DNA of 4,506 bases from a virus (lineage: Duplodnaviria > Heunggongvirae > Uroviricota > Caudoviricetes), in the IMG/VR virus record IMGVR_UViG_2534681657_000006; one strand, written 5' to 3'. Position 1 is the first letter of the stretch; the number at the start of each line of letters is the position of its first letter. Shown here piece after piece: positions 1 to 4,506 of this stretch. The notes under the pieces are model-generated. The model was not told the DNA's origin, ran no database searches, and saw nothing but the letters and a program-made list of their open reading frames with translations. Both the position numbers and the translations under genes were made by a program.

Positions 1-224
1 ATGTGCTGCTGTGCTGTTTTGGTTCATCGGTGCCGAATCATGCCGCCATTTACTGCGGCGACGGTGAGCTGCTGCACCATATTCCTGAACAACTGAGTAA
101 ACGAGAGAGGTATACCGACAAATGGCAGCGACGCACACACTCCCTCTGGCGTCACCGGGCATGGCACGCATCTGCCTTTACGGGGATTTACAACGATTTG
201 GCCGCCGCATCGACCTTCGTGTGA
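1..224 (+). CDS. K: Tail assembly protein K, C-terminal part (5' end lies outside the window; first full codon at 3, stop TGA 222-224)
   Basis: Open frame runs from the window edge to TGA at 222-224. The translation (...AAIYCGDGELLHHIPEQLSKRERYTDKWQRRTHSLWRHRAWHASAFTGIYNDLAAASTFV) matches my recollection of the C-terminus of lambda gpK, and the gene sits immediately upstream of and overlapping gene I as in lambda. The M at position 3 in the ORF track is a GTG internal codon, not a real start. Confidence 0.8.
   Translation, partial: VLLCCFGSSVPNHAAIYCGDGELLHHIPEQLSKRERYTDKWQRRTHSLWRHRAWHASAFTGIYNDLAAASTFV
103..110 (+). promoter_or_regulatory. Putative Shine-Dalgarno for gene I (GAGAGAGG), 11 nt upstream of the ATG at 122
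   Basis: Purine-rich GAGAGAGG at 103-110 inside the 3' end of K, followed by ATG at 122. The spacer is on the long side. Confidence 0.4.
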
Positions 225-769
225 AAACGGGGTCTGAAGCCATCCGGGCGCTGGCCATGCAGATCCCGGCGTTTCGTCAGAAACTGAATGACGGCTGGTA
301 TCAGGTGCGCATTGCCGGGCGTGATGCAGGTGAAACCGAATTGTCTGCCCGTCTTAATGAGCCGCTGGCAAATGGTGCCGTGATCCACATCGTGCCGCGT
401 CTGGCGGGAGCTAAAAGTGGCGGTGTGTTTCAGGTGGTGCTGGGGGCGGCGCTGATTGCGGTGGCATGGTGGAACCCTGTGGGCTGGCTGGGTGCCGCGG
501 CTGTATCGGGCATGTATGCGGCAGGGGCCAGTATGATCCTGGGCGGAGTGGCGCAGATGCTGGCACCGAAAGCCAGGACGTCCACGGCAGCAAGTACAGA
601 TAACGGCAAACAGAACACCTATTTCTCCTCACTGGATAACATGGTTGCCCAGGGCAATGTTCTGCCTGTTCTGTACGGTGAAATGCGCGTGGGGTCACGC
701 GTGGTTTCTCAGGAGATCAGCACGGCAGACGAAGGGGATGGTGGTCAGGTTGTGGTGATTGGTCGCTGA
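122..769 (+). CDS. I: Tail assembly protein I (215 aa)
   Basis: Complete ORF ATG 122 to TGA 767-769. N-terminus MAATHTLPLASPGMARICLYGDLQRFGRRIDLRVKTGSEAIRALA and C-terminus DNGKQNTYFSSLDNMVAQGNVLPVLYGEMRVGSRVVSQEISTADEGDGGQVVVIGR match my recollection of lambda gpI. It has a central Gly/Ala-rich hydrophobic segment. The start lies inside the 3' end of K in a different frame (103-nt overlap), as in lambda. Confidence 0.9.
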   Translation: MAATHTLPLASPGMARICLYGDLQRFGRRIDLRVKTGSEAIRALAMQIPAFRQKLNDGWYQVRIAGRDAGETELSARLNEPLANGAVIHIVPRLAGAKSGGVFQVVLGAALIAVAWWNPVGWLGAAAVSGMYAAGASMILGGVAQMLAPKARTSTAASTDNGKQNTYFSSLDNMVAQGNVLPVLYGEMRVGSRVVSQEISTADEGDGGQVVVIGR

Positions 770-787
770 TGCAAAATGTTTTATGTG

Positions 788-815
788 AAACCGCCTCCGG
801 GCGGTTTTGTCGTTT
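788..815 (+). terminator. I-J intergenic GC-rich hairpin with interrupted T-tract (possible weak terminator, attenuator or RNA-stability element)
   Basis: AAACCGCC (788-795) and GGCGGTTT (800-807) are exact reverse complements around the loop TCCG, followed by TTTTGTCGTTT. The T-tract is interrupted, so this is not a canonical strong terminator. Confidence 0.3.
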
Positions 816-817
816 AT

Positions 818-821
818 GGAG
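818..821 (+). promoter_or_regulatory. Shine-Dalgarno for J (GGAG), 8 nt upstream of the ATG at 830
   Basis: GGAG at 818-821 with ATG at 830-832; spacing is typical. Confidence 0.6.
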
Positions 822-829
822 CATGACGA

Positions 830-1900
830 ATGGGTAAAGGCAGCAGTAAGGGGCATACCCCGCGCGAAGCAAAGGACAACCTGAAGTCCACGCAGTTGCT
901 GAGTGTGATCGATGCCATCAGCGAAGGGCCGGTTGAAGGTCCGGTGGATGGATTAAAAAGCGTGCTGCTGAACAGTACACCGGTGCTGGACAGTGAGGGG
1001 AATACCAACATCTCCGGTGTCACGGTGGTGTTCCGGGCAGGTGAGCAGGAGCAGACACCGCCGGAGGGATTTGAATCCTCCGGCTCCGAGACGGTGCTGG
1101 GTACGGAAGTGAAATATGACACGCCGATCACCCGGACCATCACGTCGGCAAACATCGACCGTCTGCGCTTTACCTTCGGTGTGCAGGCACTGGTGGAAAC
1201 CACCTCAAAGGGGGACAGGAATCCGTCGGAAGTCCGCCTGCTGGTTCAGATACAACGTAACGGTGGCTGGGTGACGGAAAAAGACATCACCATTAAGGGC
1301 AAAACCACTTCACAGTATCTGGCCTCGGTGGTGGTGGATAACCTGCCGCCGCGCCCGTTTAATATCCGGATGCGCAGGATGACGCCGGACAGCACCACAG
1401 ACCAGCTGCAGAACAAAACGCTCTGGTCGTCATACACCGAAATTATCGATGTGAAACAGTGCTACCCGAACACGGCACTGGTCGGCGTGCAGGTGGACTC
1501 GGAGCAGTTCGGCAGCCAGCAGGTGAGCCGTAATTATCATCTGCGCGGGCGTATTCTGCAGGTGCCGTCGAACTATAACCCGCAGACGCGGCAATACAGC
1601 GGTATCTGGGACGGAACGTTTAAGCCAGCATACAGCAACAACATGGCCTGGTGTCTGTGGGATATGCTGACCCATCCGCGCTACGGCATGGGGAAACGTC
1701 TTGGTGCGGTGGATGTGGATAAATGGGCGCTGTATCTTATCGGCCAGTACTGCGACCAGTCAGTGCCGGACGGCTTTGGCGGCACGGAGCCGCGCATCAC
1801 CTGTAATGCCTGGCTGACCACCAGCGTAAGGCGTGGGATGTGCTCAGTGATTTCTGCTCTGCGATGCGCTGTATGCCGGTATGGAACGGGCAGACGCTGA
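830..1900 (+). CDS. J: J segment 1 (frame 2); J-like translation ends near 1822, and the last 25 codons before the stop at 1900 are out-of-frame readthrough
   Basis: ORF-track ORF with an SD-supported ATG. The J-like sequence is read through ...RITCNAWLTT, then becomes SVRRGMCSVISALRCAVCRYGTGRR. Confidence 0.6.
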   Translation: MGKGSSKGHTPREAKDNLKSTQLLSVIDAISEGPVEGPVDGLKSVLLNSTPVLDSEGNTNISGVTVVFRAGEQEQTPPEGFESSGSETVLGTEVKYDTPITRTITSANIDRLRFTFGVQALVETTSKGDRNPSEVRLLVQIQRNGGWVTEKDITIKGKTTSQYLASVVVDNLPPRPFNIRMRRMTPDSTTDQLQNKTLWSSYTEIIDVKQCYPNTALVGVQVDSEQFGSQQVSRNYHLRGRILQVPSNYNPQTRQYSGIWDGTFKPAYSNNMAWCLWDMLTHPRYGMGKRLGAVDVDKWALYLIGQYCDQSVPDGFGGTEPRITCNAWLTTSVRRGMCSVISALRCAVCRYGTGRR

Positions 1901-2454
1901 CGTTCGTGCAGGACCGACCGTCGGATAAGGTGTGGACCTATAACCGCAGTAATGTGGTGATGCCGGATGATGGTGCGCCGTTCCGCTACAGCTTCAGCGC
2001 CCTGAAGGACCGCCATAATGCCGTTGAGGTGAACTGGATTGACCCGAATAACGGCTGGGAGACGGCGACAGAGCTTGTTGAAGATACGCAGGCCATTGCC
2101 CGTTACGGTCGTAACGTCACGAAGATGGATGCCTTTGGCTGTACCAGCCGGGGGCAGGCACACCGCGCCGGGCTGTGGCTGATTAAAACGGAACTGCTGG
2201 AAACGCAGACCGTGGACTTCAGCGTGGGTGCTGAAGGGCTTCGCCATGTACCGGGCGATGTCATTGAAATCTGCGATGATGACTATGCCGGTATCCGCAC
2301 CGGTGGGCGCGTGCTGGCGGTGAACAGCCAGACCCGGACGCTGACGCTCGACCGTGAAATCACGCTGCCATCCTCCGGTACCACGCTGATAAGCCTGGTT
2401 GACGGAAGTGGAATCCGGTCAGCGTGGAGGTTCAGTCCGTCACCGACGGCGTGA
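1840..2454 (+). CDS. J: J segment 2 (frame 1); J-like reading extends upstream to about 1822 (QRKAWD precedes the nominal GTG at 1840) and ends near 2412
   Basis: The frame 1 translation QRKAWDVLSDFCSAMRCMPVWNGQTLTFVQDRPSDK... continues the J protein with no SD or start of its own. The nominal start is an internal GTG. Confidence 0.55.
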   Translation: MLSDFCSAMRCMPVWNGQTLTFVQDRPSDKVWTYNRSNVVMPDDGAPFRYSFSALKDRHNAVEVNWIDPNNGWETATELVEDTQAIARYGRNVTKMDAFGCTSRGQAHRAGLWLIKTELLETQTVDFSVGAEGLRHVPGDVIEICDDDYAGIRTGGRVLAVNSQTRTLTLDREITLPSSGTTLISLVDGSGIRSAWRFSPSPTA

Positions 2455-2666
2455 AGGTGAAAGTGAGCCGTGTTCCTGACGGCGTTGCTGAATACAGCGT
2501 GTGGGGGCTGAAGCTGCCGACGCTGCGCCAGCGCCTGTTCCGCTGCGTGAGTATCCGTGAGAACGACGACGGCACGTATGCCATCACCGCCGTGCAGCAT
2601 GTACCGGAAAAAGAGCCATCGTGGATAACGGGGCGCACTTTGACGGCGACCAGAGCGGCACGGTGA
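2424..2666 (+). CDS. J: J segment 3 (frame 3); J-like reading from about 2412 (NPVSVEVQ...) to about 2615
   Basis: Frame 3 encodes [68 protein letters not shown], continuous with the J sequence. The nominal start is an internal GTG. Confidence 0.55.
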
Positions 2667-4306
2667 ATGGTGTCACGCCGCCAGCGGTGCAGCACCTGAC
2701 CGCCGAAGTCACCGCAGACAGCGGGGAGTATCAGGTGCTGGCGCGCTGGGACACGCCGAAGGTGGTGAAGGGCGTGAGCTTCATGCTTCGCCTGACCGTG
2801 GCAGCGGATGACGGCAGTGAGCGGCTGGTCAGCACGGCCCGGACGGCGGAAACCACATACCGCTTCACACAACTGGCGCTGGGGAACTACAGGCTGACAG
2901 TCCGGGCAGTAAATGCGTGGGGGCAGCAGGGCGATCCGGCATCGGTATCGTTCCGGATTGCCGCACCGGCAGCGCCGTCGCAGATTGAGCTGACACCGGG
3001 GTATTTTCAGATAACCGCCACGCCGCATCTTGCGGTTTATGATCCGACGGTACAGTTTGAGTTCTGGTTCTCGGAAAAGCGGATTGCGGATATCAGGCAG
3101 GTTGAAACCGCAGCCCGCTATCTTGGCTCGGCGCTGTACTGGATAGCTGCCAGTATCAATATCAAACCGGGCCATGATTATTATTTTTACGTTCGCAGTG
3201 TGAACACCGTTGGCAAATCGGCATTCGTGGAGGCTGTTGGTCAGCCGAGTGATGACGCATCCGGCTATCTGGATTTTTTCAAAGGCGAGATAGGGAAAAC
3301 CCATCTGGCTCAGGAGCTGTGGACGCAGATTGATAACGGTCAGCTTGCGCCTGACCTGGCTGAAATCAGGACGTCCATTACGGATGTCAGCAATGAAATC
3401 ACGCAGACCGTCAATAAGAAACTGGAAGACCAGAGTGCGGCAATTCAGCAGATACAGAAGGTTCAGGTTGATACAAATAATAACCTGAACAGCATGTGGG
3501 CTGTGAAGCTGCAGCAGATGCAGGACGGACGCCTTTATATCGCGGGTATTGGTGCCGGTATTGAGAACACCCCTGACGGCATGCAGAGTCAGGTGCTGCT
3601 GGCGGCAGACAGGATTGCGATGATTAATCCTGCGAATGGCAACACAAAGCCGATGTTTGTTGGGCAGGGCGATCAGATATTCATGAACGACGTGTTCCTG
3701 AAACGCCTGACGGCTCCCACCATTACCAGCGGCGGTAATCCTCCGGTATTTTCCCTGACACCGGACGGGTGGCTGACGGCGAAAAATGCCGATATCAGCG
3801 GTAACGTGAATGCGAACTCCGGGACGCTCAACAACGTCACGATTAACGAGAACTGTCGGGTTCTGGGAAAACTGTCCGCCAACCAGATTGAAGGCGATCT
3901 CGTTAAAACAGTGGGCAAAGCTTTCCCCCGGGACTCCCGTGCACCGGAACGGTGGCCATCAGGGACCATCACCGTCAGGGTTTATGACGATCAGCCGTTT
4001 GACCGGCAGATTGTTATTCCGGCGGTGGCATTCAGCGGCGCTAAACATGAGAGGGAGAATAACGATATTTATTCGTCATGCCGCCTGATAGTACGGAAAA
4101 ACGGTGCTGAAATTTATAACCGTACCGCGCTGGATAATACGCTGATTTACAGTGGTGTTATTGATATGCCAGCTGGTCGCGGCCACATGACGCTGGAGTT
4201 TTCGGTGTCATCATGGCTGGTAAATGACTGGTATCCCACAGCAAGTATCAGCGATTTGCTGGTTGTGGTGATGAAGAAAGCCACCGCAGGCATCAGTATC
4301 AGCTGA
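2621..4306 (+). CDS. J: J segment 4 (frame 2, same frame as segment 1); J-like reading from about 2615 ([11 protein letters not shown]...) to stop at 4306; contains FN3-like repeats and the distal putative receptor-binding region
   Basis: Longest uninterrupted ORF (561 aa). Two segments, [63 protein letters not shown] and [26 protein letters not shown]...[23 protein letters not shown], look like fibronectin-type-III-like beta-sandwich repeats as reported for J-type central fibres. The nominal start is an internal GTG. Confidence 0.6.
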
Positions 4307-4325
4307 ATTTTATAACCCATATACG

Positions 4326-4352
4326 GGCGCCAGAAATGGCGCCTTTTTTATT
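4326..4352 (+). terminator. Rho-independent terminator downstream of J
   Basis: Perfect 7-bp GC-rich stem GGCGCCA (4326-4332) and TGGCGCC (4337-4343) around a GAAA tetraloop, immediately followed by TTTTTTATT (4344-4352). It starts 20 nt after the J stop. Confidence 0.7.
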
Positions 4353-4373: not shown

Positions 4374-4506
4374 ATGCGTAAAGTTTGTGCAGCCATTTTG
4401 TCCGCAGCCATCTGTCTGGCCGTATCCGGTGCGCCTGCATGGGCGTCTGAGCAGCAGGCCACACTGAGCGCAGGGTATCTTCATGCCCGTACGAACGCTC
4501 CCGGCA
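4374..4506 (+). CDS. lom: Lom-like outer-membrane protein (Ail/Lom/PagC family), N-terminal part with signal peptide; 3' end lies outside the window
   Basis: ATG 4374 with SD, open to the window end. The translation MRKVCAAILSAAICLAVSGAPAWA|SEQQATLSAGYLHARTNAPG has a classic Sec signal peptide (basic n-region, hydrophobic core, A-W-A cleavage motif). Position directly downstream of J behind its own terminator is the lambda lom position. Only 44 codons are visible, so family assignment rests mostly on synteny. Confidence 0.7.
   Translation, partial: MRKVCAAILSAAICLAVSGAPAWASEQQATLSAGYLHARTNAPG

Follow-up and report, generated by a model that had tools for sequence, protein, structure and literature searches.

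Gene Content of the Window

The window, meaning the whole stretch of 4506 bases that was analyzed, is the distal tail module of a lambda-type prophage and contains the 3′ end of K, the genes I and J, and the 5′ end of lom. It displays 98.4% DNA identity to prophages of complete E. coli genomes, in which J is a single 3480-nt gene annotated as "phage attachment tail tip protein J", and 96% identity to phage vB_EcoS-640R1. The features, all on the plus strand, are as follows.

1–224 (+): 3′ end of the tail tip assembly gene K (C40/NlpC-P60 peptidase), truncated by the contig end; from annotated homologues and the ORF
122–769 (+): tail assembly gene I, 215 aa, intact; Pfam Lambda_tail_I, with the exact protein in 5 other assemblies
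830–4306 (+): gene J overall, as four ORFs (830–1900, 1840–2454, 2424–2666, and 2621–4306)
830–1821 (+): J segment 1, frame 2, from the true J start to break 1; PF24801 FNIII-A_GpJ; the ORF extends out of frame to 1900
1821/1822 (+): break 1, 1-bp deletion in ACCAC-CAGCG, where G or A occupies the Thr wobble position (ACG/ACA) of intact alleles; MAF 0.23
1822–2411 (+): J segment 2, frame 1; ORF 1840–2454; PF13550 Phage-tail_3
2411/2412 (+): break 2, 1-bp deletion GTGG-AATCC; intact alleles have mostly C, else T or G, never A; wobble base of Gly, MAF 0.31
2412–2614 (+): J segment 3, frame 3; ORF 2424–2666; in GenBank, the 80-aa hypothetical protein ENB03684.1
2614/2615 (+): break 3, 1-bp deletion in AAAGA-GCCAT, where the Glu codon of intact alleles is GAA or GAG; wobble base, MAF 0.49
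2615–4306 (+): J segment 4, frame 2, ending with the stop codon of J; within ORF 2621–4306; Ig_J, Ig_J_second, Phage_Tail_Tip, and Ig_GpJ_C
4325–4350 (+): terminator-like hairpin and T-run in the J-lom spacer, seen in the sequence
4374–4506 (+): lom 5′ end (Ail/Lom outer-membrane protein), truncated by the contig end; from homologues and Pfam

The gene order K-I-J-lom is common to the window and to the lambdoid prophages that encode lambda gpJ/TipJ, the protein of tail tip attachment and host specificity. The Pfam domain series of this family also occurs in the window J, in the expected order over the four fragments (FNIII-A_GpJ, Phage-tail_3, Ig_J, Ig_J_second, Phage_Tail_Tip, and Ig_GpJ_C). 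Its domains, its synteny, and its near-identity to annotated genes make the window J an ordinary member of the gpJ/TipJ family. The difference is that lambda gpJ/TipJ is encoded by one ORF (~1130–1165 aa), whereas the deposited gene is divided into four, and the departure from a single ORF is due to three 1-bp gaps only.

Several smaller features accompany these genes. The I ORF as called (215 aa, ATG at 122) overlaps the end of K by ~100 nt, and the true start of I is ambiguous because phage record ON470612 annotates a shorter I, with a start near window position 221. The I-J spacer carries a GC-rich hairpin at 788–807, AAACCGCC-TCCG-GGCGGTTT. In E. coli GE3 (locus L003), the stem of the terminator-like hairpin between J and lom is one base short.

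A Frame Break in Gene J

Over positions 2401–2416, the window reads GAC GGA AGT GGA ATC CGG…, and the deletion form as deposited is GTGGAATCC. The triplets GGA (2410–2412) and AAT (2412–2414) share A2412. Frame 1 (ORF 1840–2454) encodes …LISLVDGSG up to the break, followed by 13 further residues to a stop codon, while J quits frame 1 after GG (2410–2411) and resumes in frame 3 from AAT (2412–2414). The resulting protein join, …LVDGSG to NPVSVEVQ…, matches intact J.

In a MAFFT alignment with three intact relatives, the window lacks a single base at exactly three points, after positions 1821, 2411, and 2614, and the best matches correspondingly span 4509 bases versus 4506 in the window. At break 2, the homologues reveal a lone 1-bp gap between G2411 and A2412. 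Restoration of the three bases converts J to an uninterrupted 1159-codon ORF with no internal stop, and the peptide across the restored break 2 is identical to that of the intact J of E. coli 602354. Given the alignment gap and the identical junction peptide, the frame break truly exists in the sequence as deposited, rather than being a chance pattern of ORFs. Frames, ORFs, and homologue alignment thereby agree with part of what the initial annotation had proposed: a break at about 2412–2413 with a shared A2412, the loss of one base exactly at the GGA/AAT junction, continuation of J in the downstream frame 3, and an intact gene that reads Gly-Asn here. In the aligned relatives, that dipeptide is encoded by GGC-AAT or GGT-AAT.

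Identity of the Missing Base

To identify the lost base, 71-mers, each with one restored base between the two 35-nt flanks taken from the window, were searched in 5,426 complete E. coli genomes, which hold ~7,600 homologous places. Restoration of C (GGC-AAT) retrieved exact matches in 1,414 records and restoration of T (GGT-AAT) in 728, whereas the complete genomes contained no exact match with G restored (GGG-AAT), and all ~7,600 places yielded none with A restored (GGA-AAT). The deletion form in its ±35-nt context was likewise absent from these ~7,600 places. A looser pattern applied to 120 IMG/VR loci returned C (78), T (26), and G (17) at the site but no A, with the base absent in one locus. 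A panel of 86 distinct "clean" alleles over window positions 1650–2950 provided a third comparison. Its alleles with 0 mismatches to the window have C (20) or T (8) over ±35 nt, and C (6) or T (1) over ±75 nt.

Since C and T match in context and A and G never do, the lost base is, as read from these alleles, the C/T wobble base of a Gly codon; it lies between G and A, outside any homopolymer. The initial annotation had instead proposed contraction of AAA to AA and had named homologues lacking an extra A at this site as evidence that would speak against it. Neither the ~7,600 places in complete genomes nor the 120 IMG/VR loci include a homologue with GGA-AAT, which refutes the AAA-to-AA reading by that very standard.

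A homopolymer contraction in the wider sense, in which slippage or a sequencing error removed one base from an ancestral GGA-AAT (AAA run) or GGG-AAT (GGG run), is highly improbable. The sequence GG/AAT is formally compatible with the loss of A from GGAAAT or of G from GGGAAT, and the G allele is known in other flank contexts, namely those of the 17 IMG/VR loci noted above, 3 of which have an AAGT context. This account is opposed by the lack of A at the site in both the IMG/VR loci and the complete genomes, by the lack of G in the window's own ±35-nt context in the complete genomes, and by the nearest panel alleles around the site, which have C or T only. Break 1 (CAC[G/A]CAG), too, lies unambiguously outside a homopolymer. 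Illumina chemistry, moreover, is little prone to errors in 3-base runs.

Placement of the Breaks on Polymorphic Wobble Sites

Breaks 1 (1821–1822) and 3 (2614–2615) are events of the same type as break 2, each lacking one base at a position of frequent synonymous polymorphism. In the 86-allele panel, all three deletions fall on third-codon columns, with MAF values of 0.23, 0.31, and 0.49. Columns with MAF >0.2 make up 5.9% of the total, and the placement of three out of three deletions on them has a hypergeometric p of 2e-4. The deletions also coincide, again three out of three, with sites at which the two J copies of strain 602354 (L001 and L009) differ; such sites account for 3.7% of positions (p about 5e-5). 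Random mutation offers no reason for this placement, which would be expected of a consensus derived from reads of two diverged copies.

The relationship of the window to the two 602354 copies changes along its length. Relative to L001, the window has zero mismatches after position 2836 (~1,670 bp), while positions 1–2836 contain 67 differing sites (about 2.4%), 51 of which carry the L009 base. The change at 2836/2837 may be either a recombination boundary or a partial blending of copies in the consensus. A fine mosaic was also considered as proof of a chimeric consensus and was dropped, given that the window displays 31–40 switches between L001 and L009 and genuine alleles from finished genomes and phages display 32–37. 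In a leave-one-out copying model of the 86 alleles, the window had a cost of 12 versus a median of 10, and the clearly faulty loci L108 (cost of 8) and L031 (cost of 13), described below, also went unflagged, so that the model has no power here. By these tests the substitutions of the window do not look chimeric, which speaks against an artifact, although the tests fail to pick out L108 and L031 as well.

The Same Signature in Other Contigs of the Project

Among the 120 IMG/VR loci, the deletion form at break 2 was found in only one locus besides the window. This locus, L108 (= L130), is the whole of the short contig AQAC01000076.1 from E. coli P0302293.4 (GCA_000356785.2), and its J allele is 96.8% identical to that of the window over the common 2.7 kb. 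L108 combines the same deletion at 2411 with eleven more 1-bp deletions within ~360 bp (L108 596–960). Of its twelve deletions, seven are located on columns with MAF >0.2 (p = 1.4e-6). An antisense ORF of L108 (639–857, −) has been deposited as ENE31525.1 and forms a singleton cluster.

Two further loci from the same study display this pattern. In L031 (E. coli BCE034_MS-14), 28 single-base deletions are spread over 1.3 kb (L031 12037–13312), several at the positions affected in L108, and 15 of the 28 are on columns with MAF >0.2 (p = 1.9e-12). In L006 (P0302293.3, AQAB), ~5 single bases are missing in K (L006 5885–6000), at the wobble polymorphisms GCC/GCT/GCA, TGC/TGT, GGC/GGT, and TAT/TAC. 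All three loci were assigned to the GSCID ETEC project; for L108, the assignment was made through the protein names (E. coli P0302293.4), AQAC being absent from Table S1 of the project's publication. In that table (PMC5469772), P0302293_3, a sibling isolate of the L108 strain, is listed as ST155, versus ST443 for 2860650, the strain from which the window derives.

The remaining 90 panel loci are free of deletions of this kind. Otherwise, frameshifting indels occur in the panel only in L101, L129, and L051, located mainly in a G-run at ~2147–2155 (CCGGGGGC) and amounting to −1 or +2. These represent the classical class of homopolymer error or slippage and are distinct from the breaks of the window, which is in frame at this G-run.

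The breaks of L108 and L031 are consensus failures, because 12–28 frameshifts accompanied by normal substitution patterns cannot be natural. On the strength of their sequence pattern, the three breaks of the window belong to the same class, one of them being at the identical site, and the recurrence within one project points to a consensus problem that affects multi-copy prophage regions across the project. What counts against an artifact is that the window contains 3 deletions only, versus 12–28 in the clear-cut artifact contigs.

Source Assembly and Multi-Copy Context

The Celera Assembler is an overlap-layout-consensus program. The window is the entire contig APXG01000018.1 from the draft genome of the ETEC strain E. 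coli 2860650 (GCA_000356445.2). This strain is a CS5/CS6 ETEC of ST443 from Bangladesh (APXG00000000; reads SRR446794; Sahl et al. 2017, Table S1, PMC5469772), and the methods of the same paper give 100-bp Illumina HiSeq 2000 reads as the input and the Celera Assembler as the program. By the authors' statement, SPAdes 3.6 was applied to every genome as well; the project comprises 94 Celera assemblies. Exact protein look-ups returned APXG01000018.1 alone and no second, independent assembly of strain 2860650.

Homologues of the whole window occur at a median of 3 places per complete E. coli genome. Several lambdoid prophages, with K-I-J-lom regions ~94–98% identical, are usual in an E. coli genome, and single genomes can contain both the C and the T allele of break 2 between identical 35-nt flanks. 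One example is the closest complete genome, strain 602354, whose two J copies lie in different prophages, L001 with C and L009 with T. Across window positions 600–3000, these copies are 94–98% identical. The multi-copy state and the identity between copies were measured in related genomes, from which we infer them for strain 2860650 itself. In 602354, the ends of the window contig do not match a boundary of divergence between the copies, which are 90–97% identical well past both ends; this comparison is uninformative for strain 2860650 itself.

Origin of Break 2

Break 2 is very probably a consensus error of the 2013 draft assembly and not a mutation in the organism, a reading based on comparison of deposited sequences. 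Reads from at least two co-resident lambdoid prophages, with K-I-J-lom regions ~94–98% identical, would have been merged into one contig, a collapse that we infer for 2860650. At some columns on which the copies disagree, the Gly wobble position with its C or T among them, the consensus would emit no base, which would yield GG/AAT and an apparent −1 frameshift. A possible inner step is that the two alleles were placed in adjacent half-gapped columns, each of which was then called as a gap. An artifact of this kind predicts that the reads at break 2 would be a mixture of GTGGCAATCC and GTGGTAATCC, with few or none containing GTGGAATCC.

The closest parallel is the class of consensus indel errors that arise when repeats collapse in short-read drafts. 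In these as in the window, a multi-copy region appears as a short contig standing alone, with gaps where copies differ, and the errors recur within one project and assembler and are absent from finished genomes. The usual textbook error class is homopolymer length. The window departs from this class, as its lost bases are at non-homopolymer SNP positions of a putatively collapsed repeat.

A real loss of the C/T wobble base, as one of three independent frameshifts inactivating the J of a decaying (cryptic) lambdoid prophage in 2860650, is unlikely, even though the deletion is present in the sequence as deposited and E. coli commonly carries prophage tail genes that have become pseudogenes. Frameshifted pseudogenes of cryptic prophages do share the apparent outcome, a tail gene broken by single-base frameshifts. 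Unlike them, the window J displays no relaxed selection and no sharing by lineage, and its breaks fall nonrandomly on polymorphic wobble sites. Three random losses would all have had to hit high-frequency synonymous polymorphisms (p about 2e-4, as above), and one of them would have had to coincide exactly with a loss in a different J allele, that of L108, from an unrelated strain processed by the same pipeline. The deletion is absent from all 5,426 complete genomes, and its sole other occurrence is in the error-ridden L108. J otherwise appears to be under purifying selection and free of stop codons: compared with the nearest intact allele, the restored gene has 33 synonymous and 7 nonsynonymous codon differences, and codon position 3 accounts for 36 of the 43 nucleotide differences. 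This comparison gave no sign of relaxed selection, whether as stops or as a nonsynonymous excess. Three independent frameshifts within 800 bp are not expected under neutral decay when the rest of the gene looks selected, and the decaying J gene implied by the initial annotation is accordingly doubtful, the pattern fitting a consensus error of the assembly.

Real deletions may also be imagined to arise from recombination or gene conversion between diverged co-resident J copies, in which faulty mismatch repair of heteroduplexes would generate 1-bp deletions at polymorphic sites, recurrently across strains; the prospect that this explains break 2 is very slim. Programmed ribosomal frameshifting, or another form of recoding through the break to full-length J, has a practically negligible probability and is rejected for want of conservation and of a slippery site: nothing favors it beyond the continuation of J in the downstream frame, while J is a single ~1159-aa ORF in every homologue, the break is conserved in no finished genome, three separate +1 events would be required within 800 nt, and GUG GAA UCC contains no slippery sequence. 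Even taken together, homopolymer contraction and recoding are very unlikely.

Implications

Break 2 is best filed as an assembly artifact rather than a genuine feature of the organism. Through the three breaks, one ordinary 1159-aa tail-tip protein has become four database entries, those with accessions bearing misleading names: ENB03682.1 ("putative host specificity protein J"), an unaccessioned 204-aa ORF, ENB03684.1 ("hypothetical protein"), and ENB03685.1 ("fibronectin type III family protein"). Surveys of pseudogenes would score the breaks in the window J as prophage decay. If the consensus-error reading is true, break 2 would represent a data-quality caution rather than new biology, and its signature, single bases missing at common non-homopolymer SNPs in multi-copy prophage genes from one project, can be used to flag false frameshifts in those ETEC drafts.
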